From positions 1 through 59,496 of the IMG/VR virus record IMGVR_UViG_3300035670_000232: a stretch of DNA of 59,496 nt, one strand, 5' to 3'. The notes under the pieces were generated by a model. That model was given only the letters and a program-made list of their open reading frames with translations. It was not told where the DNA came from and did not search any database. Below, one piece after another: positions 1,947-48,678 of this stretch (the stretch's first letter is position 1; each line of letters opens with the position of its first letter). The DNA is from a virus (Duplodnaviria > Caudoviricetes). The translations under genes and the position numbers were made by a program.

Positions 1947-3281
1947 ATGAGTACAGAAACCGACGACGAAGAGACAGTTGTATGTGCGGACGGCGAAACC
2001 CGTCCGGCATCCCTTTGCGTGGAGATTGACGGCGATTTCTACCAGTCCGATAGCGAGGATATTATCCTCTGCGATGACGACGAGTGGCGATTGCTGGAGG
2101 ACTGCGTGGAGACTGTCAACCATGGTTGGCGTCACCGCGACGAGTGCCACAACATTCCTCGCAATTCGCGGGAACAGCGATGGTACTACGAAGACGACGA
2201 AGATATTGTCTGCTGTCACGACGGCGAATACCGTATGCGTGACGACTGTACCTACGTCGAATGCGAGGGCGAATACTACCACTACGACGAGGTGTTTCAC
2301 TGCGAACACTGTGAAAACAGTTATCCAGACAGCTACTCGTCTCATATGGTAACGAATCGCCGTGGTTATGAGCAGACATGGTGCGAAACCTGTTTCCATG
2401 AGGACGGGTTTTGCTGCGAGAGTTGTGGCGAATGCTTCCACAACGACCACTATAACGAGGGTTGCTACTGCAATGACTGTGCCGGTGATAGCGAGGAGGA
2501 GCCTGAGGATCAAGGCGGTATTGAGTGCTACTCATGCCGCAAGTCCGACCGACTCCAGCCCGAGTCCACCGACAAGCAGTTGCTGGGCTACGAGTTGGAG
2601 GTGGTCAGTCGCAACGGATCGGTGAGCGATGCGGTGAAGTTCGTCAGGCAGCACCTGGCTACCGACTACGTTACCCTCAAATCCGATGGCAGCATCTGCG
2701 GCCCCGGCTTTGAGATCGTGTCACGGCCAGACAGTCTGGCAGTCCACAAGAAAAAGACTGAGGCCTTCCTCGCAGAGGCCAAGGATCACCTCAAATCGTG
2801 GCCAGCGAACCTGGACTGCGGGATGCACGTTCACATAACACGATCAGCACTCTCGCCCCTGCAACTTGGCAAGATGCTAGTCTTCCTCAACGACCCCGGC
2901 AACGAGCGATTCGTTACCGATGTGGCCGGGCGGGGGCCGATTGAATGGTGCAAGCGTAGTCCGAAAAAGCTGACCGATGGCATCAAGCGTAGCGACGAAC
3001 GTCGGGCAGCACTGAATCTCACCAACGACCGCACCGTGGAAGTAAGAATCTTCCGTGGCAACGTGGCCCGCGATGGGTTCATCAAAAACTTGGAGTTTGT
3101 GCAGGCTCTCGTAGACTTCACTGCTCCAGCCGAACAGTCTATCGGCAACTCGTGCCGCCACGACGAGTTCTGCAAGTGGCTCAATCCAAAACAGTACCCA
3201 ACACTTCACGCCTTCCTCCTGCGTAAGGGCTATGGCGTGAAGAAAATCAATCTCAAGAAGGGAGAGGACGAATGTGCCTAG
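1947..3281 (+). CDS. Putative amidoligase (COOH-NH2 ligase type 2) with acidic Cys/His-rich N-terminal repeats
   Basis: GYELEV, KSDGSI, GFEIVS, CGMHVH, TVEVRIFRG motifs; multiple CxxC. Confidence 0.85.
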   Translation: MSTETDDEETVVCADGETRPASLCVEIDGDFYQSDSEDIILCDDDEWRLLEDCVETVNHGWRHRDECHNIPRNSREQRWYYEDDEDIVCCHDGEYRMRDDCTYVECEGEYYHYDEVFHCEHCENSYPDSYSSHMVTNRRGYEQTWCETCFHEDGFCCESCGECFHNDHYNEGCYCNDCAGDSEEEPEDQGGIECYSCRKSDRLQPESTDKQLLGYELEVVSRNGSVSDAVKFVRQHLATDYVTLKSDGSICGPGFEIVSRPDSLAVHKKKTEAFLAEAKDHLKSWPANLDCGMHVHITRSALSPLQLGKMLVFLNDPGNERFVTDVAGRGPIEWCKRSPKKLTDGIKRSDERRAALNLTNDRTVEVRIFRGNVARDGFIKNLEFVQALVDFTAPAEQSIGNSCRHDEFCKWLNPKQYPTLHAFLLRKGYGVKKINLKKGEDECA

Positions 3282-4072
3282 CAGTCTACAAGCCAGCGAA
3301 TGTGCTGCCCAACTGGGAAGCCTACGAGCATGGCTTTGACAACAACAAAGACGGTGCGGGTTTCGTGGCGGCAGTCAATGGCCGTATCGAAATCCACAAG
3401 GGTTTCTTCACATTCGATGAGTTCAAGGCAGCGTTTGAGCCATACGCTGCTGCTCAGGCGGCCATTCACTTCCGACTGGCTACGCATGGCAACACCGACC
3501 ACGGTAATTGCCATCCGTTCCGCGTGTCGGACGAGACGGCGATGGTTCACAATGGCATCTTGAACATCGACTGCAACGTGAACAAAGAGAAGTCCGACAC
3601 CTGGCACTACTGCGAGCTAGTCTTGGCCCCGATGGCGAAGCGTGATCGCGGTTTCTTCAGGCGAGGAGCGATCAAGTTCATGGGCGAGGCTGCGATCAAG
3701 GGCAGCAAGTTCATCTTCCTCCGGGCAGATGGAGCCCATTCAATCTGGAATGAGAACGACGGGCTATGGGAGAACGACCAGTGGTGGAGCAACACATCCT
3801 TCAGGGTGCCACGCTACACCGCTGGCTACTTCGCCAAGGCCTTCTCCTCTTCCAAGAAAAAGGAAAAGGCCAGCGACGACTGGGGCTGGGATGTGCGGGA
3901 CTACGGCAAGGCCAGCAGCGAGAGCGAATACTACGACTTCCTCACTGGCGAAGCCAAGTGGGCGTACGACGAACTCCGCGACGTAGGCTTTGACGACTAC
4001 GAGATTGACAGACTGTACCGCGAAGAGGGTATCGACGCGGTGATTGCAACTGCGGAAGAAACCTACGAGTGA
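3272..4072 (+). CDS. Class II (Ntn) glutamine amidotransferase
   Basis: N-terminal Cys2 (MCL), N.DGAG, HFRLATHG, NCHPF, HNG, SDT motifs. Confidence 0.9.
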   Translation: MCLAVYKPANVLPNWEAYEHGFDNNKDGAGFVAAVNGRIEIHKGFFTFDEFKAAFEPYAAAQAAIHFRLATHGNTDHGNCHPFRVSDETAMVHNGILNIDCNVNKEKSDTWHYCELVLAPMAKRDRGFFRRGAIKFMGEAAIKGSKFIFLRADGAHSIWNENDGLWENDQWWSNTSFRVPRYTAGYFAKAFSSSKKKEKASDDWGWDVRDYGKASSESEYYDFLTGEAKWAYDELRDVGFDDYEIDRLYREEGIDAVIATAEETYE

Positions 4073-7219: not shown

Positions 7220-7429
7220 ATGTGGATTAGACGCAAGACCTACGACAAGATGCTGAACGACAACCTAGCTATGAAGATGGAGCGAGACGAGGAGCGAGGA
7301 AAGAGGGAGCGGGTTGAGGCGGAGATGCTTGAGGCACACCGCCAGAACGCTACCCTCATGGTTGCATTGCGTGCGTTGCGTGATGTGAACGCGGACCTGG
7401 ACAGGAAGCTACAGGATGCCAACAACTAG
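7220..7429 (+). CDS. Small coiled-coil protein
   Basis: GGAG SD; heptad pattern. Confidence 0.65.
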   Translation: MWIRRKTYDKMLNDNLAMKMERDEERGKRERVEAEMLEAHRQNATLMVALRALRDVNADLDRKLQDANN

Positions 7430-8228
7430 ATGCTACGTCCGTGTGTCTACCGACAAGCAGGAGAATTCCTTTGAGGTACAGCAAGCTCGCCTCATTGAGG
7501 CAGCTAAGAAGCTGGGCCTGCCGGTCAAGGTGTACGCAGACTTCGATGTGTCGGCACGGAAGATTGCCTTGCACAATCGGCCCGAGGGCAAGAGGATGTG
7601 CGAAGACTTGGAGCCGGGGGATCATGTGTTCTTCACCTCTATCTCCCGTGGTTTCCGCCGGGCAGCCGAGTGCATCCAGCGGTTCCAGACATGGTGGGAG
7701 ATGGGCATCACCGCCCACATGCTGGACATGAACGTGGACATGAGTACCCCCTATGGCCGTGCCATCCTGGGGTACATGGCAGTGGGTGCGGAGCTTGAGT
7801 CCGACCTGAACTCCGAGCGAAGGAAGGAGATAGTAGCCCACAAGCGGAAGACAGACCAGCCATACAACCAGATCCGACCGTGGGGATGGATCGCCACCAA
7901 GGATAAGCGTGGCAAGCTCAAGGGCTGGGCTATCTACGAGCCCGAGCGTCAGACCGTGAAGCTCATCCGCTCGCTGCGGGAAGCGGGTGCCTCATACCGG
8001 GACATCGTGTTCGATCTGTCCATCAAGTACAAGATCAAGAAGCCCCACGCGAAGGGCGGCGACACCTACTACCAGCTTGTGGATGTTGTCTCTCTTCTGA
8101 AGGCGGCGGCAAATGGGTATCCAAGGCTGCCGCGAGCCTTTTGGCAAGCTCGCGACTACGCACAGAAGCTAGACGAGTTGAGGTTGAATGGCGACCTGCG
8201 ATTGCGCGAAGAGTGCATCCATTCTTGA
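7416..8228 (+). CDS. Serine recombinase, resolvase/invertase family
   Basis: YVRVSTDKQ catalytic motif, S.R...RP, SISRGFR, AELE....SER. Confidence 0.9.
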   Translation: MPTTRCYVRVSTDKQENSFEVQQARLIEAAKKLGLPVKVYADFDVSARKIALHNRPEGKRMCEDLEPGDHVFFTSISRGFRRAAECIQRFQTWWEMGITAHMLDMNVDMSTPYGRAILGYMAVGAELESDLNSERRKEIVAHKRKTDQPYNQIRPWGWIATKDKRGKLKGWAIYEPERQTVKLIRSLREAGASYRDIVFDLSIKYKIKKPHAKGGDTYYQLVDVVSLLKAAANGYPRLPRAFWQARDYAQKLDELRLNGDLRLREECIHS

Positions 8229-8637
8229 ACCGATCCTCGGCCAACGCCCGGTCCTCCTCGTCCAGATCGCTGATGGCCAGGCCCAAGTAGTCGGGATGCT
8301 CAAAGATTGGGCATAGTTCCTCTGCCTCTGAGAGGGAAATCTTCCAGTCGCCAGGAGCTTTCTTCGCCTTGTTCATCCACTTGTACATGGCGTTCATGGT
8401 GGCCATGACGAAGTACGGCTTGGGCGTTGGCTTCCTGCCTGGAGGGGCGGCGCTTACTCGGTAGCGACGGGCAGCTTTGCATATGGCAAGGAACCCCTCG
8501 GCCTCAAGGTCTGGTATCAGTTGAGCCCGCTGCCATCTGGCCCGCTTGCTGACGAACCACTTCGCCATCATGGGCGCGAGCCAAGCCCAGTCGTTGGCCA
8601 GGTCACGCTGTCTCTTGTTCAATCGCTCGCTTGGCAT
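8035..8637 (-). CDS. Sigma70-family RNA polymerase sigma factor
   Basis: Region 2 DLEAEGFLAICKAARRY; region 4 AISDLDEEDR...TLRAIA HTH. Confidence 0.8.
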   Translation of the reverse strand: MPSERLNKRQRDLANDWAWLAPMMAKWFVSKRARWQRAQLIPDLEAEGFLAICKAARRYRVSAAPPGRKPTPKPYFVMATMNAMYKWMNKAKKAPGDWKISLSEAEELCPIFEHPDYLGLAISDLDEEDRALAEDRFKNGCTLRAIAGRHSTSTRLASVRSRELAKRLAAALDTHLPPPSEERQHPQAGSRCRRPSRGAS

Positions 8638-8639
8638 GG

Positions 8640-8864
8640 TCAAAGTGTAGCGTCTTGACACTGGCGAATGAGTCGAAAAAGTATCAGCCCCGCATACGGA
8701 TCACACTTGCCTAGCTCAACATCATCCTTGACATGCATCCTCGCAAGAGAGGACTGACTGCGGCGGTACTGGTAGATGTAGGTGTGTCCATCCATGGACA
8801 CATTCAATCGTATGAGCGGGTCTAATCCGCACCCCTTGAAGTGCTGGGCAATATCATCTCTCAC
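8640..8864 (-). CDS. Small hypothetical protein
   Basis: Operon packing. Confidence 0.6.
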   Translation of the reverse strand: MRDDIAQHFKGCGLDPLIRLNVSMDGHTYIYQYRRSQSSLARMHVKDDVELGKCDPYAGLILFRLIRQCQDATL

Positions 8865-9207
8865 CCTTTATTGCCCCGATGGATGGGTGTCCCTGCCTGA
8901 GCGTGTCCTTGATGTCTTCTTGGTTGTCAGCGATCTCGCTAAGGATCTCGGTCTGCTTCTTCTCTGCGTCGGCGTGTGTTTCTGCTGCGTCTGCCAATGT
9001 CTTCAGCGCCTCGGCCTGCTTGGTCTGGTTCTCAATCGACCGCTGCAAGTAGTCGGTGTGGCTCTTGACGGCAGGCACCAGCACGGAGTCGTGCAGCCCA
9101 GAAATCACCCACCACAAGCCGACGAACATCACGGCCAAGATGGCGCTCGGAACGCCTAGCTTTTCACCTACCCACTTCACGAGATCATTGCGTTCTGAGT
9201 CCGTCAC
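8854..9207 (-). CDS. Membrane protein with coiled coil (holin- or spanin-like)
   Basis: GTG start overlapping the upstream stop; TM GVPSAILAVMFVGLWWVI followed by coiled coil. Confidence 0.6.
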   Translation of the reverse strand: MTDSERNDLVKWVGEKLGVPSAILAVMFVGLWWVISGLHDSVLVPAVKSHTDYLQRSIENQTKQAEALKTLADAAETHADAEKKQTEILSEIADNQEDIKDTLRQGHPSIGAIKGER

Positions 9208-9554
9208 TTCGGCGTTCCTTTCATGCTGTGCCACCAGCGGCGTATGAGGTACTGGACGATGGCCGAGATGGCCCACGAAAGAATGAATGTAGTGAACGCG
9301 CTGCTGCACTTCTCGCCGTATATGGCAGCCACCCGCTCGTTCATAGACAGCCTGGCCTCGTCGCCATGGGCGTTGTCTTGACCGCCCAACATAAGCTCGT
9401 GACCGGCAGTGCAGTCATACGCTATGCGGACAAGCCGGTCGCAACGCTTGCGCCCTAGCATGAACCGACGAACGGGATTAGAGGCAAGGACTTCCCATGC
9501 CTCGTCTTGTAGACGGGATAGACTCAAGGCTTCCTGCACTTTCCATCTGGGCAA
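9204..9554 (-). CDS. Hypothetical protein with C-terminal hydrophobic helix
   Basis: FTTFILSWAISAIVQYLIRRWW. Confidence 0.65.
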   Translation of the reverse strand: MPRWKVQEALSLSRLQDEAWEVLASNPVRRFMLGRKRCDRLVRIAYDCTAGHELMLGGQDNAHGDEARLSMNERVAAIYGEKCSSAFTTFILSWAISAIVQYLIRRWWHSMKGTPK

Positions 9555-10294
9555 GCGTCCAAATTTTTTGGACCGTTCGCCATCGGCTTCTCCTCCAAGA
9601 ACTTGCGAAGCCGGTCGGTTCTCGTGGCCCTGGCGTGGCCGTCAAGCGACCCCCAGATAATGCCCGATAGCTCGCCCTTGGAGTTGAACACTGGCCCGCC
9701 AGAGTCACCATTCCTGGCCTCGGTGGATAGCACCATGAACTCAGGCTTGCGATGCCCTTTCGGCGTCGTCCAGTAGAGAACCCTGCCCTCAGCTTCCCTG
9801 AACTTGGAGGGGATTGGGCCGAACCCCATGACTGTCAGTGTCTCGCCGAGAAGGGCAGTCTCATCGGCCACTGGCACTGGCTGGGCGTGGGCAGACTCTA
9901 CCTCCAGGGCGGCAAGGTCAAACGGATCGCTGCTTGCCACCACCTTGGCCTTGCTCACCGACCCATCCTGCCAATGAACAGTGACCGGCCCGCCGTCTTC
10001 GATAACATGATGGGCAGTCAGCACCAAGCCGCCTTCAATCAGCACCCCAGACCCATGGTCTTTGTGGTCGCCGTTGTGCTGGGTGATTCGCACTACCGAC
10101 TTGCGAGGGTCTGGCTTGTGGGAAATATGATCCGTTTTTCCTACACCAAAAACTGTCGCATCCCGCCCACTCCCATCGCAAAGCGGGCAGGCGTAGGCAG
10201 CAGAGCCGACACGCACCAGGCCATCCTCGCAGTTGGCGCAGTCGCCAGCTAGGGCAGAGGCTGTGAGCAGAAGGGCAGCGATGAAGGCTTTCAT
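9524..10294 (-). CDS. Secreted trypsin-like serine protease
   Basis: Signal peptide MKAFIAALLLTASALA; triad LTAHH, DLAAL, GDSGGP; CxxC..CxxC; C-terminal CPDGKC. Confidence 0.9.
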   Translation of the reverse strand: MKAFIAALLLTASALAGDCANCEDGLVRVGSAAYACPLCDGSGRDATVFGVGKTDHISHKPDPRKSVVRITQHNGDHKDHGSGVLIEGGLVLTAHHVIEDGGPVTVHWQDGSVSKAKVVASSDPFDLAALEVESAHAQPVPVADETALLGETLTVMGFGPIPSKFREAEGRVLYWTTPKGHRKPEFMVLSTEARNGDSGGPVFNSKGELSGIIWGSLDGHARATRTDRLRKFLEEKPMANGPKNLDACPDGKCRKP

Positions 10295-11181
10295 GATGCG
10301 GGCTTGCTCCAGTCGTCGGGCTTCGTGGTGGTCACAATCGCAAACGATCCACGCCATGCGGACTTCATGGTCCGCTCGGAATCGTAGCGGAGTACGTCAT
10401 ACGAATCCGGGTAACACGCAAGCCTTTCGCCAGCCATGTACTTCGCCCACGGCACCGCATGGCCATCCCTGCCAACGCTCACGACCATGCCGCGCAGCAA
10501 GCAGCACACAGCCTCTTCGTAGCTGGCCGGGAAGATGATCTCTAACGGGCGGAACAGCTTGGCCGTCTCCTCCCAGCCATCGGGCAGGCGAGACTTGGAA
10601 ACCCACGGGCCACTGGCCTGGTTCAGTCCTCCCTTGCCGGTCGTTCCATGAATGGCGTGCTTGAACTGGTAGTCGTATGGCTGCACTGTCTCGGGCAGCA
10701 TCCCTCTGCGGACTGCAATCTCCAGCACGGCACGCACATTGGCACCACCCCACTGCCTCGGATTCGCCTCGCAGTAGACGCTCAAAGGGGACAGCCAAAC
10801 GGACCCGGCCTTGCCAGACTCGGGGTATCGGAACCCCTTCTTCGGACCCTCTGCGTACGACACCGCACGCTCTCGGTTGCGGGCCGCTTCAAAGTTTGCC
10901 CGAAGAGAATGACAGGTGCATTCATGGGTGGGCGTCTGGTTCGTGAACCTGTCTATGTAGTTCAGGCCCCATGTTCCGCACTTGTCGTTGTCTCTCGCGG
11001 CGTCGTCCCAATCCTTGGGGTCGATCATCCACGAGGCAGGCATCGAACGGGCGGCGTCACCGCACACATCTTGCAGGACATCGCGGGTATCCTCGGCAGC
11101 AAGATGTGCCGGGTAGCCGTCATGCTCGGGCAGGCGAACGTCGATGAGCGACGGGTCGATCTTGGAGAAGGAGTCAATCAT
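10291..11181 (-). CDS. Papain-like (C1-type) cysteine peptidase
   Basis: NQ....ECTCHS (Gln..Cys), LSPLSVY, GHAV, PDSY in place of NSW. Confidence 0.7.
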   Translation of the reverse strand: MIDSFSKIDPSLIDVRLPEHDGYPAHLAAEDTRDVLQDVCGDAARSMPASWMIDPKDWDDAARDNDKCGTWGLNYIDRFTNQTPTHECTCHSLRANFEAARNRERAVSYAEGPKKGFRYPESGKAGSVWLSPLSVYCEANPRQWGGANVRAVLEIAVRRGMLPETVQPYDYQFKHAIHGTTGKGGLNQASGPWVSKSRLPDGWEETAKLFRPLEIIFPASYEEAVCCLLRGMVVSVGRDGHAVPWAKYMAGERLACYPDSYDVLRYDSERTMKSAWRGSFAIVTTTKPDDWSKPAS

Positions 11182-11551
11182 TGGCCGCCTCCAAGACCTC
11201 AGCCTCGGTCTTCACCTTGACGACGCGAATAACCTTGCCGCCAGCCATCACAACCAGGGCGGGGACGCCAGCCTTCTCTGCCGCCGCCTCGGCAAGCTTG
11301 TATTGCTCGGGCGTTTCACCCGTGCCGTCCGTGCCGCCCATCTCGTGGGCCGACGCCTTGATGGTGGTGTTGAGCTTTGCCAATCCTGCCCGCACAGCAG
11401 GCGGGACAGGCTCACCATCCTTGTCCCACACATACACCACCCGGTCAGCCACCGTCACTGGCTGAACCACTGCCCACTTCGACAGGTCTGGCAGATCGGG
11501 AATCCCGAACGCCATAATCAGCCCGCCGAGAATGAACAGCCAGGGCTTCAT
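11174..11551 (-). CDS. Membrane-anchored or secreted protein, possibly a thioredoxin-like fold without CxxC
   Basis: Hydrophobic N-terminus; GVPALVV..GGKVI..TEAEVL pattern. Confidence 0.55.
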   Translation of the reverse strand: MKPWLFILGGLIMAFGIPDLPDLSKWAVVQPVTVADRVVYVWDKDGEPVPPAVRAGLAKLNTTIKASAHEMGGTDGTGETPEQYKLAEAAAEKAGVPALVVMAGGKVIRVVKVKTEAEVLEAAND

Positions 11552-11554
11552 CGC

Positions 11555-11812
11555 CTACTCCTTCACGGACTTCTCGGCCAGCATGGCCTGGAGCAGGGAC
11601 TGTGCAATGTCGGCAGCCTTGTTCTTGCCGTCCTTGCGCAGGCGGCGGGTAATATCCACCACCGTCTTCTCATCATCGACCGCACCCAGGGCCGGTTGCC
11701 CGGCACCGGGAGTCCGCTTGGGAACGTACTCCTGCCACAGCAGGTAGAGCCCGTACCCAGTGAGGCCCACGGCGATGCCAACCTGGATGGCGGTTTCGAT
11801 GATGTCTTTCAT
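11555..11812 (-). CDS. Single-TM membrane protein
   Basis: IQVGIAVGLTGYGLYLLW; AGGAG SD. Confidence 0.7.
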   Translation of the reverse strand: MKDIIETAIQVGIAVGLTGYGLYLLWQEYVPKRTPGAGQPALGAVDDEKTVVDITRRLRKDGKNKAADIAQSLLQAMLAEKSVKE

Positions 11813-12072
11813 TTCTTCTCCTGAACCAGAGTCGCAGCGTGTTCGACGCAATACCGCAGAAGATCCTCGCCCTGCGGAGTACGCAGCACTGCGTCAATCC
11901 GCGACACCAGCCCGTCGTCGAACGTGGTCTGGGTGCGATTGGCCAGGAATTCCAGGGCATCCATGACAGCCAGAGACTTGGAGTGAGAGTCTGGTTCCGA
12001 GATGATCTTCTGGCCGACGTTGATGAGCGGGAGCCACTCGTTGTAGAGGGCGATCTTCTGCCAAAGGTTCAT
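11809..12072 (-). CDS. Hypothetical protein (T.T.FDD motif, holin-like)
   Basis: First gene after the GGACAAT promoter; T.T..DD motif seen in some phage holins. Confidence 0.6.
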   Translation of the reverse strand: MNLWQKIALYNEWLPLINVGQKIISEPDSHSKSLAVMDALEFLANRTQTTFDDGLVSRIDAVLRTPQGEDLLRYCVEHAATLVQEKK

Positions 12073-12110
12073 GCGTTTCTCCGTACTTTGAGGGGGCGGG
12101 GCCTACAATA

Positions 12111-12119
12111 CCATTGTCC
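12111..12119 (-). promoter_or_regulatory. Putative phage late promoter, GGACAAT class
   Basis: GGACAATGG-N4-GTAG. Confidence 0.7.
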
Positions 12120-12136
12120 CGCAGCCCTGTCACAAG

Positions 12137-12475
12137 TTACGGATTGGGCAGATCCCCAGCTATTTCCCGCACGAAAGCAGGGGCGTCGTCAAGCTCAACA
12201 ACGAGCAGCCATTTCTTCTTGTTGCGCCTGTATAAAACCACGGGGATTTTCTCCCCGCATTCGGCCTTGGCCTGGGCCATGAACAGGTACGGGTTGCCGC
12301 TCTCGGTACGCTTGACCTCAACGTGGATGTTCTCGTGGCCGGTCACAATGTCCGGGGCTTCCGGCCCACCGTGATACTGTACCCCCCGCCGAGCCGGGAC
12401 GCAGAACAAACGGGACCATTCGCCCGCAGCCTCCCGCTCTCCGGCCTTACCCTTCTCACGCTGGCTTCGTCCCAT
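12137..12475 (-). CDS. Holliday junction resolvase, Hjc-like PD-(D/E)XK
   Basis: KGKAGEREAA, PDI, EVKR motifs. Confidence 0.8.
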   Translation of the reverse strand: MGRSQREKGKAGEREAAGEWSRLFCVPARRGVQYHGGPEAPDIVTGHENIHVEVKRTESGNPYLFMAQAKAECGEKIPVVLYRRNKKKWLLVVELDDAPAFVREIAGDLPNP

Positions 12476-12941
12476 CCCTGGACTCCTTTGCTTCGGATAC
12501 CGCCCGGTCAACGCAGGCAATGGCAACAATCGCATGGCCCGCTATGTCTTGGAGGGTCTTGCGAATCTCCCTCCACTCCGCAGCACTGGCCCGCAATCCA
12601 TCCAGTCTGCCGACCTTCTCTCCGATCCTGGCAAGCTGGTACACCCACGGCTCAATGCCCTGGTCGCGGACCCGCATTGCGTTCTCAAGCGGATCTTGCG
12701 AGCAGGAATAGTAACTACGCTTATGGTCCAGCAGCCGCTGCATCTCATTGCACAGAGGCGGCCACGGCGATGACGTTGCCGTGCGAACAAACTCCTCAAT
12801 GCCGCGAATCTTTCCGGTGGCGTTCACCTTGGCGTACCATTCCTCCAGTGTTACTGGAGTGGAGTACGGGTCGCCATCGTCTTTCGCTGCCATAACAAAC
12901 CGCACGTTAGCGGACACCTCATCATCGTCTTCTAGTGGCAT
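12456..12941 (-). CDS. Nucleotide-modification-associated domain 1 (DUF1599-like), degenerate
   Basis: K...Y....DP..N, R.GEK..RL..L, TLQDIAGHAI. Confidence 0.55.
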   Translation of the reverse strand: MPLEDDDEVSANVRFVMAAKDDGDPYSTPVTLEEWYAKVNATGKIRGIEEFVRTATSSPWPPLCNEMQRLLDHKRSYYSCSQDPLENAMRVRDQGIEPWVYQLARIGEKVGRLDGLRASAAEWREIRKTLQDIAGHAIVAIACVDRAVSEAKESRDGTKPA

Positions 12942-17062: not shown

Positions 17063-17076
17063 AACAGGAAACCAAG

Positions 17077-17148
17077 CAGCCCCACGGGGAGTCGAACCCC
17101 GACTCTCGGAACGAAAATCCGATTTCCTAACCATTAGAAGATGGGGCC
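17077..17148 (-). tRNA. tRNA-Glu (UUC), no encoded CCA
   Basis: Acceptor GGCCCCA/TGGGGCT, anticodon stem TCGGA/TCCGA with loop TTTTCGT, T-arm CGGGG-TTCGACT-CCCCG. Confidence 0.9.
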
Positions 17149-34392: not shown

Positions 34393-34563
34393 TCACAGCT
34401 CGCCTTGCGGCAACGCCGCACTGGTCGCTGGCAACAGGTCGGCAGGCACTGCCGCCAGCACCCGCTGGGCAAGGTGCGTGACGTACTCGCACGGATCGCC
34501 GTGGGTGGCAAGCGGGTAGCACTCCGCCGCAATCCGCCTCAGTGCCTGTTCGTGTTCGCTCAC
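34393..34563 (-). CDS. Small hypothetical protein
   Basis: GGAGG SD; GTGA overlap. Confidence 0.45.
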   Translation of the reverse strand: MSEHEQALRRIAAECYPLATHGDPCEYVTHLAQRVLAAVPADLLPATSAALPQGEL

Positions 34564-34871
34564 GGCGTCACCTCCACCGGGATCATCGCCACGGCGTCGG
34601 CCCATGGCATCACCTCGGTGCCAGCCGCGATCGCCTGCAAGTCCGATGCGGCCCACATGGCGTGGAGCAAGCCGCCGGGATGCACCTCGCTGAGAACGTC
34701 AGCACTGAGCATGTAGCGGCCATCCGTGAGCGTGACCGGCATCGGCACGCAGTTTGTGTTGCCGTGCTGCTGCCACTTGGCGGCGAGGGCTCCGGCAAGC
34801 GAGGCGTCGAACACCAGGGCATACTGGCGTAGCGTAGCGAGGTCGGCGGATAGAAGTTGAGGGAGTGTCAT
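34560..34871 (-). CDS. Hypothetical tail-associated protein
   Basis: ATGA overlap; P..LTDGR..L.AD.L.E motif. Confidence 0.7.
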   Translation of the reverse strand: MTLPQLLSADLATLRQYALVFDASLAGALAAKWQQHGNTNCVPMPVTLTDGRYMLSADVLSEVHPGGLLHAMWAASDLQAIAAGTEVMPWADAVAMIPVEVTP

Positions 34872-35713
34872 GAGCCAGCCCTACCGATAGATGTCAGGAA
34901 CGGCCTTATGATTGCCTGGTAAGTGTTCACCTGCGCCGCAGTAAGGCCGACGCCGATGGAATATGATGAAAGCCTTGAGGTGGTTGCAGTCAATGCCCCT
35001 GCGGCTGTTCTTGCGGAAAACACGGCAATTTCTCTAGTGGACGCTGGGTCGCTTACCGTCGTGGCGTTGGCTGTCGCTGATGCGTTCGCGTAAAAAGTCG
35101 CCGTGGTTCCCACAACCGAAAGTGCCAATAAGTCACCTGCGGCAGAGGCGTAGTTGGTAACAGCTCCAGTGTTGCGAAGGGCAGCAGCATCGGCCGCAAG
35201 GCCGTAGAACGTCCCCGCCGGGCTGCTACCGGTAATACTGAAAATATCGAAGAAATTAGACGGGTCTGGCTCAATGCCGATAACGCGCCTGAACACATCT
35301 GCCGAATTCTGCTGAACCGTCACAGACAGATGCCTCTTTGCGACGAAGTTGGCCGCCAGTCCTGTGCCGAGCCATTTTGTAGCGCCGCCGCCGAGTGCCG
35401 TTGCTTCGGTGTAATCACCGCTCACAAACGGACCGTTGTTTGTGTCCGTTGCATTCCCAAACGTCGCCCCGCCAAACACCGGCCCCCTATAAAGCGGCAC
35501 CAATGCCGCAGTGAGCCCCGAGCCAGCAAATAGGTTAAGCCGGTAGAAGCGATCCCGAATCCCTGCCGCATCAATGCTCCGGCAGAACCGCGAAACCGCA
35601 TTCATTGTCGCGCCGCTCACCGTCCCGCCATTCGCAATGACAGCCGCACGCCAAGCCACCGCCTCCGGGTGGAGCGTCTGGCGAGGCACCAGCAAGCGGT
35701 TGTTCATCGGCAT
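34868..35713 (-). CDS. Putative receptor-binding protein, LamG/ConA-like C-terminus
   Basis: ANGGTVS N-terminus; FYAN..EIAVF..GLTAAQV beta-sandwich pattern. Confidence 0.6.
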   Translation of the reverse strand: MPMNNRLLVPRQTLHPEAVAWRAAVIANGGTVSGATMNAVSRFCRSIDAAGIRDRFYRLNLFAGSGLTAALVPLYRGPVFGGATFGNATDTNNGPFVSGDYTEATALGGGATKWLGTGLAANFVAKRHLSVTVQQNSADVFRRVIGIEPDPSNFFDIFSITGSSPAGTFYGLAADAAALRNTGAVTNYASAAGDLLALSVVGTTATFYANASATANATTVSDPASTREIAVFSARTAAGALTATTSRLSSYSIGVGLTAAQVNTYQAIIRPFLTSIGRAGS

Positions 35714-46348: not shown

Positions 46349-46906
46349 TCAGTAGAACCCGCGCTGCATGGCCATGAGGTTGACGCCAGGAGAAGGCGCT
46401 GGAGCGGCGGGGCGACGTTGTGGCATTGGCGCCATTCGCTGAGGCTGCTGCTGCGCCGACTGGATCGCCCTGTTGGCGTTCGGACTGCCACGGAACTTTG
46501 CAAGCTCGGCGGGAGTCGGAGCCCGGCCGGTCTTGCTCTGGTAATACTGCGACAAGATTTGATCGTTACCAGACTGCATGGCCTTCCAGTCAGCAGCAGT
46601 CCCGCCCATGCGGACAAACTCCTGGCCTGTTGGAGCCCGACCCATCTGCTGCGACAACTGGCTGTAGTCAGCCTGGACTTGATCCATCGGGCGAGCCTGG
46701 CTCCACTGAGCCCGCTGCCGCGCCGTGGGATTGCCGCCCATGGCCTGAACGTCTTGCCCGATCTGCTGGCGATAAGCAGTCATTGGAGCGCCAGCATAGG
46801 TCGCCTTGGCGGCACCGCCGGATCGCTTCGGAAGCACGCTGCGAACTTGCTGGCCATAGGGATCACCGCCGCCAGCCAGGCCAGAAACACCGAGCGCACC
46901 AAACAT
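46349..46906 (-). CDS. Q/A/G-rich low-complexity protein
   Basis: AGGAGG SD; internal GRAPT..E duplication. Confidence 0.7.
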   Translation of the reverse strand: MFGALGVSGLAGGGDPYGQQVRSVLPKRSGGAAKATYAGAPMTAYRQQIGQDVQAMGGNPTARQRAQWSQARPMDQVQADYSQLSQQMGRAPTGQEFVRMGGTAADWKAMQSGNDQILSQYYQSKTGRAPTPAELAKFRGSPNANRAIQSAQQQPQRMAPMPQRRPAAPAPSPGVNLMAMQRGFY

Positions 46907-47562: not shown

Positions 47563-48678
47563 TTAGGCCGTACGGATCTTGAAGAAGTTGCGCGGGCTCT
47601 TGAAGCAGAGGTTCCCGAGCATCGTCACTGCGTAGCGGAACTGTTGCGTTTCCTCGTCGTAGAACGGTCCTTCAACTTCCAGGAGGTTGTCCTGGAGGCT
47701 CTTGAACGAGATGTTCCCGGTGCTGAGGCCGTAAGCCGTATCAGCAGGAACCGCTTCGTCCTTGGTGCATTCCACGCCGTCGAACTCAAACACGTCCTTG
47801 AAGCCGTAGCTTCGGAGGCCGTTGTCACGAGTCACAACAACCCGCTCCTTGCTGTCAAGCGAGTTGAGAGCTTCGATGTAGAGTCGGCGGTTCATGATGC
47901 ACATGTCCACCTGGTCTTCCATCGTGTCGTTCCGTTGGGTCTGGTGAATCGCTTCACGCAGAGCCTTCATGCAGTTGTCCTTCCAGGTCGAAGCCCCGAA
48001 GTACGAACTGACGCCGTTGACGATCACCGGAGTCCAGAAGTCAGTCTCTGGATCGCTGGAGCCGTTCGGCCAGAAGGTCGCACTCGTCAGGCTGCCACCG
48101 TAGTTGGCCAGCACAGTGCTGAGGCCAGCGTAGGTGTCGTTCGGGTAGTAGAACGGGTCGGCCGAGTTGGCAGTCCGAGCCGTTGCACCAGTACCCGTAA
48201 CGTCAATCGTCTGGGTCGCACCGAACATCGTTTCGATGCCAACCAGCCGGTCTTCGTTCCCAGTGGCCTCGCCGTCGATAACCCACTCGGCGCCGAGCTT
48301 CTGGTTCATCGACTTGATGAGCCGGTCCTTCATGCCGCTGGCCACCTTCACGAGAGCCTGAGCGCCACGATTGGCGAGTTGCTCACGGTTGTAGATGGCA
48401 TCCGTGGCCTGCAAGCCTCTCCACCCGAGGGTGGCGTTCTTCCACAGGTTCTCACGAGCGAACGAACGCATCGTTTCGCCAGTGTTGCCGGACACCAGGT
48501 GGTTCCGGTACTGGATCTGCCACTGGAAGGTTTCGCCCGACATGCCGGTTTCAGTCCGGCCATTGTTGACGATCATGCTCCAGAACTTGAAGTTCCTAAA
48601 GCACGCCAGCTCCTCTTCCTTGAGGTAGTTGGTGATGGTCGTTGCGAGACTACGAGCCCAGTTCACGTTCTGCGGCAT
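47563..48678 (-). CDS. Major capsid protein
   Basis: 371 aa after the scaffold; GF....FDG, GNL..PR C-terminal pattern. Confidence 0.85.
   Translation of the reverse strand: MPQNVNWARSLATTITNYLKEEELACFRNFKFWSMIVNNGRTETGMSGETFQWQIQYRNHLVSGNTGETMRSFARENLWKNATLGWRGLQATDAIYNREQLANRGAQALVKVASGMKDRLIKSMNQKLGAEWVIDGEATGNEDRLVGIETMFGATQTIDVTGTGATARTANSADPFYYPNDTYAGLSTVLANYGGSLTSATFWPNGSSDPETDFWTPVIVNGVSSYFGASTWKDNCMKALREAIHQTQRNDTMEDQVDMCIMNRRLYIEALNSLDSKERVVVTRDNGLRSYGFKDVFEFDGVECTKDEAVPADTAYGLSTGNISFKSLQDNLLEVEGPFYDEETQQFRYAVTMLGNLCFKSPRNFFKIRTA

Follow-up and report, generated by a model that had tools for sequence, protein, structure and literature searches.

The window analysed here is the whole IMG/VR virus record IMGVR_UViG_3300035670_000232 (59,496 bp; CheckV completeness 100%). 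Its minus strand carries a block of seven genes (8854–12072) that is rather probably a portable non-canonical lysis cassette, in which a latent C1 peptidase, pap296, together with a thioredoxin-fold partner, anch125, would be the equivalent of an endolysin. The conserved core of the block comprises tm98 (a candidate holin), anch125 and pap296, accompanied by between one and three other small membrane proteins, in the window TA116 and Rz151. In the clade of the window, an exported HtrA/MarP-like S1 serine protease is added to this core.

Gene coupling and the proteins of the block

The seven minus-strand open reading frames (ORFs) are placed at the downstream end of the minus strand, which holds the majority of the window genes, in the order o87, tm98, anch125, pap296, trypsin, TA116 and Rz151. 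All six junctions are coupled: ATGA overlaps join o87 to tm98 and pap296 to the trypsin gene, a 3-nt gap separates tm98 from anch125, anch125 and pap296 overlap by 8 nt, and the last two junctions are a TTGA (trypsin/TA116) and a GTGA overlap (TA116/Rz151). GGAG-type ribosome-binding motifs are found ahead of four starts (tm98, anch125, pap296 and trypsin). Since all six junctions are coupled, the term coupled operon, used for these seven genes in a preliminary description made from the sequence alone, is correct. The probable starts of tm98 (11812), trypsin (10294), TA116 (9527) and Rz151 (9207) differ from those of the longest ORFs; in tm98, TA116 and Rz151 the internal starts are backed by homologue alignments. 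According to hydropathy, five of the seven products carry export or membrane signals, with one hydrophobic helix each in tm98, anch125, trypsin, TA116 and Rz151 and none in o87 and pap296.

A late promoter had also been proposed ahead of the operon. The 64-nt gap upstream of o87, the sole intergenic gap of the block, contains a sigma-70-like match (12105–12133, minus strand; GTGACA-17-TATTGT, with TG before the -10 element). One match was counted versus 1.4 expected in shuffled sequences, which is not significant, so the site cannot be called a promoter, still less a late one, and nothing else marks it as late.

The pap296 gene (10291–11181, minus strand) encodes a 296-aa protein without a signal peptide. 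Judged by its catalytic set, profile and predicted fold, this protein is a C1 papain-type cysteine peptidase, as the preliminary description had suggested in calling it papain-like. The protein matches nothing in Pfam, PHROGs and NCBIfam, and a phmmer search of PDB with pap296 alone is also empty. Its family is metagenomic: 857 relatives were obtained at E<=1e-3 among 1808 candidates, the 120 relatives listed being 65–90% identical and all unnamed or "hypothetical". A library clustered at 50% contains 76 representatives of the family at E<=1e-3 (23 of them at <=1e-30), and the family was not found in 50,697 GenBank phage records. In a 40-member alignment 11 columns are invariant, including Q82, C88, H241 and S260. 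Position 259 is D in the close clade (DSYD in the clade of the window) and N in distant members (NSWG). In its Q-x5-C spacing, its GH motif and its D/N-S-[YW] motif the family agrees with papain. The family profile matches xylellain (3ois, 8.5e-6) and cathepsin B-like and K chains, and is aligned with the GH...NSWG region of xylellain.

The AlphaFold2 (AF2) model of pap296 (pLDDT 93.2, pTM 0.92) has the two-lobed papain fold. A Foldseek search with this model gave 68 PDB matches at E<=0.001, and among the matches listed are xylellain, cathepsins, papain and other C1-family peptidases. With VIA-align, xylellain 3ois is superimposed at Z 18.8 and a root-mean-square deviation of 2.8 over 211 residues, and pro-Der p 1, pro-cathepsin H and pro-papain at Z 17–18. 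Mature papains align to model residues ~58–287, and zymogens align from residue 1 via the last part of their pro-regions; the first ~57 residues of the model are therefore read as a putative pro-region-like (zymogen-like) segment. The gathering score of Pfam PF00112 is not reached by pap296, and among 37 relatives the sole match is that of P0182 (17.5 bits vs 20.7). ESM Atlas neighbours of pap296 are nearly all viral clusters (93–100% viruses), some of them with PF00112 in 33–95% of members. Bacterial neighbours include C1 clusters with PG_binding_1 in 33% of the members of one and SLH in 100% of another, and these are taken as leads only.

In three diverged peptidase subfamilies (P0132, P0170 and P0180) an intein is inserted directly before the catalytic Cys, which acts as the +1 residue. 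This is a classic active-site insertion and marks the site as essential. The protein P0190, used as the sole query, found no viral locus. Members of 519 aa or more were not found in the family, which is weak evidence.

The product of anch125 (11174–11551, minus strand) consists of an N-terminal signal-anchor, a hydrophobic helix with a Kyte–Doolittle (KD) value of 1.60, and a thioredoxin-fold domain without CxxC. The anchor agrees with the earlier description of this gene product as a membrane-anchored protein; the thioredoxin fold is newly recognised. The AF2 fold is beta-alpha-beta-alpha-beta-beta-alpha, with pLDDT of 79–95 in 10-residue blocks from residue 31. The Foldseek matches listed for it are all thioredoxins, their variants or fusions, or complexes containing one (best E 7.6e-4, TM ~0.5). 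The domain contains no Cys, and Cys is not an invariant column among 11 homologues.

By tblastn, 18 of the 19 viral loci have an anch125 homologue immediately ahead of the peptidase gene; in the nineteenth (L020) it was recognised by reading the locus. The same layout of anchored protein and peptidase occurs in L021 and, by its matching hit pattern, in the near-twin L022. In the prophage of a Planctomycetota genome (G372), the counterpart is an anchored 133-aa protein upstream of the peptidase. A companion of this kind goes with the peptidase in all 23 contexts read, its homology to anch125 being unproven in G372. In that variant the next gene after that of the peptidase encodes a true CxxC thioredoxin with a membrane anchor (Pfam PF13098, 1.3e-9). 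In P0125 (484 aa) the two partners form one chain: an N-terminal membrane helix is followed by an anch125-like domain (residues 153–245; hhalign 98.9%, E 2.9e-17) and by the peptidase domain (residues 250–484; 53% identical by phmmer). The fusion is claimed for P0125 alone, because hhalign of the anch125 profile to the G372 CxxC thioredoxin (E 0.13), the G372 133-aa protein (E 0.24) and P0168 (E 0.65) is not significant. As far as gene arrangement can tell, the constant pairing of the two proteins and their fusion in P0125 indicate that they act together. The peptidase would work outside the cytoplasmic membrane, since the P0125 fusion is anchored and the relatives P0148 and P0168 start with hydrophobic signals.

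The junction of anch125 and the peptidase gene is an insertion hot spot. Four loci (L002, L003, L005 and L014) carry there a 1.3-kb insert encoding a 430–448-aa protein, which was considered as a lysin and rejected, as it reads as a DNA methyltransferase by its DPPY motif. In L020 an HNH-like ORF (L020:2956–3330) stands between the two homologues.

The trypsin-like S1 peptidase (9524–10294, minus strand; ORF open to 10357) has 256 aa from Met22, which is also the start of the record's own 256-aa product. It matches Pfam Trypsin_2 (PF13365) at 6.6e-23 (82.5 bits vs a cut-off of 27.6). Read from Met22, the protein begins with a signal peptide (KD 1.66) ending in ALA before GD. The triad H116-D147-S219 in the TAHH, DLAAL and GDSGG motifs is conserved in relatives. 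The C-terminal CPDGKC follows the pattern Cx(D/G)G[KR]C, which is kept by all 9 relatives in which the C-terminus was read, and the L018 protein has a second, looser copy, CPNGRC. The signal peptide and this tail had both been foreseen; the Zn-finger-like element had been placed as an insert, which it is not, being an N-terminal Cys4 module after the signal peptide (C40-x2-C43...C57-x2-C60-x-G-x-G). We take this module to be a DnaJ-type knuckle; it has no Pfam match and is matched by phrog_3931 at E 0.0012. The nearest NCBIfam models are MarP, DegP and DegS, all matched far below their cut-offs (best MarP, 2.3e-18, 66 bits vs 250). Of the 17 viral loci of sufficient length to judge, 16 have the protease, which is absent from L020, L021/L022 and G372 and is therefore an accessory of one clade and not part of the core.

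The first gene, o87 (11809–12072, minus strand; 87 aa), is conserved in relatives, with a homologue in 15 of the 19 viral loci. Its product had been described as holin-like. This is not upheld, because a membrane segment is absent both from the window protein, whose best 19-residue window has a KD of 0.66, and from 9 homologues; o87 is a soluble protein. Its PHROG matches are weak (E 0.01) and belong to families without an assigned function. The second gene, tm98 (11555–11812, minus strand; ~85 aa from the ATG at 11812 overlapping the o87 stop), does encode the expected transmembrane protein, with an N-terminal hydrophobic helix (KD 1.43) and a charged tail. With this small single-pass layout and charged C-terminus, tm98 is the best holin candidate of the block, although neither tm98 nor o87 matches a holin family in Pfam, PHROGs or NCBIfam.

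Two further membrane proteins had been expected at the end of the operon, and both have a membrane helix. TA116 (9204–9527, minus strand; ~107 aa from the TTG at 9527, ORF open to 9554) appears tail-anchored, with a soluble N-domain containing the conserved motif R-R-x-M-L-G-R-x-R-C and a C-terminal membrane helix (KD 1.69). Rz151 (8854–9207, minus strand; ~117 aa from the GTG at 9207, ORF open to 9309) has an N-terminal membrane helix (KD 2.13; residues 47–78 of the ORF), followed by a charged, probably helical external domain. Its matches to PHROG Rz-like spanins are weak (E 0.024–0.037), and it may be called i-spanin-like in layout only. A lipobox scan of all frames of the window revealed no o-spanin lipoprotein partner on the strand of the block. 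In the L021 variant, a 95-aa candidate lipoprotein is encoded downstream of the peptidase.

Recurrence of the block, search for an endolysin, and genome setting

The block recurs in all 19 viral loci. Three further near-complete records carry it: G403 (98%), G404 (90%) and G405 (100%). They are phages of a different kind, with a lambda-type portal, gpA-type terminase, capsid-protease fusion, tape measure and integrases. By blastp, the trypsin, pap296 and anch125 are the sole proteins common to the window and all three of these phages; tm98 and o87 are common to the window and two of the three. This sharing supports the lysis-module reading given in the preliminary description, as does the prophage of G372. 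There, on a 447-kb contig with a DUF1559/N-methyl gene 10 kb from the block, a distant version of the block adjoins, on the upstream side, the genes for TerL, portal, capsid and tail tube, which is the lambda-type lysis position. Its order is a transmembrane protein, the anchored protein, the peptidase, the CxxC thioredoxin, a tail-anchored protein and a transmembrane protein with a charged C-terminal region. In G403 the first gene of the block starts 2 nt past a structural-operon gene, and in L021 the block follows a large tail protein gene.

A comparable slot is occupied in one further prophage. Four loci with PF00959 (T4-type) lysozymes from Planctomycetota genomes were examined (L051–L054); only L053, of G299, is in a prophage, L051 and L054 being among cellular genes and L052 on a 3-kb contig. 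Upstream of TerL, L053:1263–6388 encodes the lysozyme, a multi-transmembrane (lipoprotein-like) protein, a lipoprotein, a membrane-anchored S1A trypsin (PF00089, 1.5e-54) and small membrane proteins or lipoproteins. By positional analogy, the slot of the G299 lysozyme corresponds to that of anch125 and pap296, and a trypsin recurs.

No lysozyme, amidase, M15/M23 or other muralytic family was detected with Pfam, PHROGs and NCBIfam among 83 window ORFs (74 by codon-usage gene call and 9 from gaps and overlaps). The unannotated gaps of the window are small, and the ORFs within them were scanned too. The three lambda-like phages likewise contain no muralytic family in 148 ORFs (Pfam E<=1e-3, PHROGs E<=1e-5). 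Six-frame searches for PF00959, PF01510, PF01464, PF13539 and PF01551 gave no match, while control genomes were positive. The earlier remark that the genome has no recognisable endolysin is confirmed at this depth. No domain of a known muralytic family is contained in pap296. Structure prediction covered two proteins, pap296 and anch125.

Beyond the proteins of the block, only a small tail-fibre-like pair at 34560–35713 (minus strand) is common to the window and one or two of the lambda-like phages by blastp. It consists of a 103-aa protein, 63–80% identical in G404 and G405, and a 281-aa Ala/Gly/Thr-rich protein whose N-terminal 120 residues are shared; the pair adjoins the block in L007, L018 and L019. 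Both ORFs (34868–35713 and 34560–34871) were considered as a hidden endolysin and rejected, as they match no family and the pair is Ala/Gly/Thr-rich and fibre-like. The pair probably represents a module for a tail fibre and its chaperone, and the sharing of it hints at a common host. Among the host-specific modules that phages exchange, lysis cassettes and fibre genes are the classical ones. CsrA-like regulators (PF02599) are encoded in two of the lambda-like relatives, at L025:619–846 (G403, 3.2e-13) and L027:11361–11648 (G404, 2.1e-6).

The window phage is podo-like, with a podovirus-type major capsid protein (NCBIfam capsid_maj_Podo, 1.1e-18). The capsid genes (47563–48678) are far from the block; other minus-strand genes include those for the portal, terminase and large tail proteins. 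A recombination-gene block encodes an exonuclease, Erf, SSB and a helicase, and contains a gene for tRNA-Glu (anticodon TTC; 17076–17148, minus strand). The seven genes are preceded by a gene for a RusA-like resolvase (12137–12535; phrog_244, 1.2e-12) and followed by that for an extracytoplasmic-function (ECF)-type sigma factor (8035–8661, minus strand; TIGR02937, 6.7e-6, below cut-off). The latter gene is convergent with that of a serine recombinase (7416–8228, plus strand), and their tails, which contain no domain, share 194 nt. Near the capsid genes lies another gene whose product weakly resembles sigma-70 (46349–46906, minus strand; Sigma70_r3, E 0.0015, below cut-off), and the phage may carry two sigma-like factors. 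Two plus-strand genes occupy 1947–4072, the first amidoligase-like (phrog_16683, 1.2e-18; phrog_2443 amidoligase, 2.5e-4) and the second, whose start it overlaps, resembling class-II glutamine amidotransferases (GATase_6, 1.3e-4; phrog_25883, 1.5e-17). Judged by these matches, the two look like a phage peptide- or metabolite-modification pair.

A planctomycete host of the window phage is plausible. The G372 prophage variant and a contig in a Pirellulaceae-labelled metagenome-assembled genome (MAG) speak for it. Against it, the near-twin of this contig was binned to a Puniceicoccaceae MAG, of another phylum, and these two are the sole close-clade genome matches. MAG bin labels are poor host evidence here, because contigs with matching hit patterns are in bins of different phyla. 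Nor can the host be inferred from relatives, since terminase relatives among isolated phages are only ~24% identical. A further point against it is that the pap296 family proper occurs in only 2 of the 401 genomes of a sample limited to Planctomycetota.

Proposed mechanism and rival explanations

In the proposed course of events, pap296 would accumulate in the cytoplasm as a latent enzyme, while anch125 and the serine protease would be exported across the membrane. Once the small membrane proteins had opened a lesion in the membrane, pap296 would be released through it, meet anch125 and become active as its N-terminal segment is lost or displaced. Load-bearing peptide bonds of the envelope would then be cut by the peptidases, with pap296 in the place of the endolysin. 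Its substrate could be stem peptides or cross-links of peptidoglycan, or else proteins of the wall and its tethers. Cleavage of peptidoglycan peptides by pap296 itself, which is thus possible, had been named in the preliminary description as a refutation of its own reading. A wider generalisation, which we regard as unlikely, is that phages of Planctomycetota, and perhaps of other PVC (Planctomycetes–Verrucomicrobia–Chlamydiae) bacteria, lyse their hosts without any glycosidase or amidase. A papain-family protease, released through a lesion, switched on by its thioredoxin-fold partner and helped by the serine protease, would then dissolve a protein-based, possibly disulfide-cross-linked load-bearing layer.

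Several points weigh against a lysis function with pap296 as the endolysin equivalent. The case is built on genomic context and not on function. The small proteins of the block match no holin or spanin family, the window has no o-spanin-like lipoprotein, and no member of the pap296 family has a recognised wall-binding domain. To our knowledge, no C1-family enzyme cuts peptidoglycan. Endolysins evolve fast, and pap296 is ~72% identical across relatives vs 35–40% for neighbour proteins; the inteins of some family members are likewise atypical of lysins. About half of the ORFs in the four genomes match nothing, so that the absence of an endolysin is limited by the sensitivity of hidden Markov models. 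The positional analogy with a lysozyme cassette comes from one prophage alone. In G403 the block is located inside a structural operon, flanked by head-tail joining genes and the gene of the major tail protein, which would agree equally with a role connected to the virion.

This last location is what favours the view, raised in the preliminary description as a possible refutation, that the proteases are virion maturation enzymes. We consider it very improbable: the trypsin has a signal peptide, relatives of the peptidase are fused to membrane anchors, G403 and G405 possess their own capsid-protease fusion (phrog_4523, 3.8e-68 and 1.4e-51), and the block, far from the capsid genes in the window, is common to podo-like and lambda-like phages with unrelated capsids. 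A slim chance is given to an envelope-acting module with no part in lysis, serving superinfection exclusion (by receptor destruction), host takeover or a prophage-expressed moron. Integrases in three of the four genomes, the serine recombinase of the window, the varying position of the block between genomes and the conservation and inteins of pap296 noted above agree with such a module. It is opposed by the tight coupling to several small membrane proteins in a holin/spanin-like layout, by the 2-nt spacing to the structural-operon gene in G403 and the location upstream of the terminase gene in G372, and by the fact that these genomes would be left without any lysis function.

Two other explanations keep the block in lysis and change its part in it. 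It could be an accessory module that, in the manner of LysB or spanins, acts against an outer protein layer or tethers, with an unrecognised endolysin elsewhere in each genome; this seems to us quite unlikely. Proteases can be accessories, because the G299 trypsin accompanies a lysozyme, and for many ORFs of the four genomes no family match was obtained. Lysis enzymes that act as accessories against additional envelope layers are known (PMC6116114; bioRxiv 10.1101/2025.06.24.661397). A hidden endolysin, however, would have to be a different one in every genome or escape detection. By blastp the window and the three phages have no other protein in common, and in G372 nothing but the peptidase block occupies the position ahead of the terminase gene. 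Alternatively, as the preliminary description supposed, the host wall could be mainly protein and be dissolved by the two proteases without any cleavage of peptidoglycan, which would suit a planctomycete host but appears doubtful. All characterised members of families C1 and S1 known to us are protein peptidases, and no muralytic family was found in the four genomes. The thioredoxin-fold partner and the true CxxC thioredoxin of G372 would suit a disulfide-cross-linked protein layer, although anch125 itself has no redox cysteines. Relatives of the block occur in a Planctomycetota prophage, and a trypsin is also found in the G299 lysozyme cassette. In PMC12673574, planctomycete envelopes are reported to be protein-dominated, but peptidoglycan components are also reported from several planctomycetes, and the premise of peptidoglycan-free planctomycete hosts is outdated. 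Phages of Planctomycetota do cut peptidoglycan, since PF00959 lysozymes occur in 9 of 401 Planctomycetota genomes, one of them in a prophage lysis cassette. Moreover, the sole close-clade genome matches, two near-identical contigs, are binned to two different phyla.

The reading of the block as a lysis cassette with pap296 and anch125 in the endolysin role would have consequences that depend on the substrate. Tailed phages are generally considered to depend on a peptidoglycan hydrolase for lysis; here, in a widespread metagenomic family, this role seems to be taken by a C1 protease and its thioredoxin-fold partner. If the block is a lysis system replacing the usual wall-cutting enzyme, it would represent a new way for phages to burst their hosts. 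Cleavage of peptidoglycan peptides by pap296 would define a new class of endolysins with a built-in latency device. If proteins are cut instead, part of the load-bearing envelope of the host group would be protein, which bears on the debate on the planctomycete wall and could be tested with a defined enzyme; a truly protease-driven mechanism would be the first of its kind in tailed phages.

Comparison with known lysis systems

The canonical lambda S-R-Rz/Rz1 genes form a holin-endolysin-spanin cassette. Like it, the block groups coupled genes for small membrane proteins about the gene of a cytoplasmic enzyme that lacks a signal peptide, is mobile between phages and, in the G372 prophage, is located upstream of the terminase gene. 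Unlike it, the block has as its enzyme a C1 peptidase and not a glycosidase, amidase or M15/M23 peptidase, relies on an exported thioredoxin-fold protein as an obligatory partner, joined in this clade by a secreted S1 protease, and includes no protein matching a holin or spanin family and no o-spanin.

Domains of the papain superfamily serve as wall-cutting enzymes of phages according to passages of PMC3314691 and PMC10318531, namely CHAP, NlpC/P60, the "papain family" domain of mycobacteriophage LysA N5 and PeiW/PeiP. In contrast to these (C51, C40, C39-like), the best matches of pap296 are papain proper and cathepsins. The Q...C...H...N/D order of pap296 is that of C1, and a wall-binding domain is absent, unlike in known cysteine-peptidase endolysins. 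Family C71 is also represented among these domains. In the papers listed by searches on planctomycete phage endolysins and on C1-peptidase phage endolysins, and by broader ones, no lysis cassette with a C1 peptidase is described.

With xylellain 3ois, procathepsins and pro-Der p 1, pap296 shares the fold, the catalytic residues and an N-terminal segment aligning with the pro-region (VIA Z 17–19). It differs from papain-family zymogens in its identity of ~10–18%, in a segment of just ~57 residues, in the lack of a signal peptide and, in the close clade, in Asp for the catalytic Asn and SY for SW. Baculovirus V-CATH is a viral C1A cathepsin proenzyme that passes through the secretory pathway and, with chitinase as its partner, liquefies the host. 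The likeness to pap296 is at the level of the family: in both cases a virus-encoded papain-family proenzyme breaks, or is here proposed to break, the structure of the host for release at the end of infection. V-CATH differs in belonging to a eukaryotic virus, in its secretory pathway and in its chitinase partner.

Activation of lytic enzymes outside the membrane under thiol or protease control has precedents. The signal-anchor-release (SAR) endolysin Lyz of phage P1 is activated by disulfide isomerisation, and in the MarP-RipA pair a serine protease activates a cysteine-type wall hydrolase. The activation suggested here for pap296 is a hypothesis of the same kind; the block has no homology to Lyz, and the match of the window trypsin to MarP is below the cut-off and reflects the shared S1 domain.

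The G299 cassette resembles the block in its slot upstream of the terminase gene and in a membrane-anchored trypsin among small membrane proteins and lipoproteins. It differs in having a PF00959 lysozyme in place of anch125 and pap296, and in a trypsin of the S1A type (PF00089) and not Trypsin_2. Trypsin-type proteases thus recur in two unrelated planctomycete-linked cassettes, which points in the same direction as a protein-based envelope.

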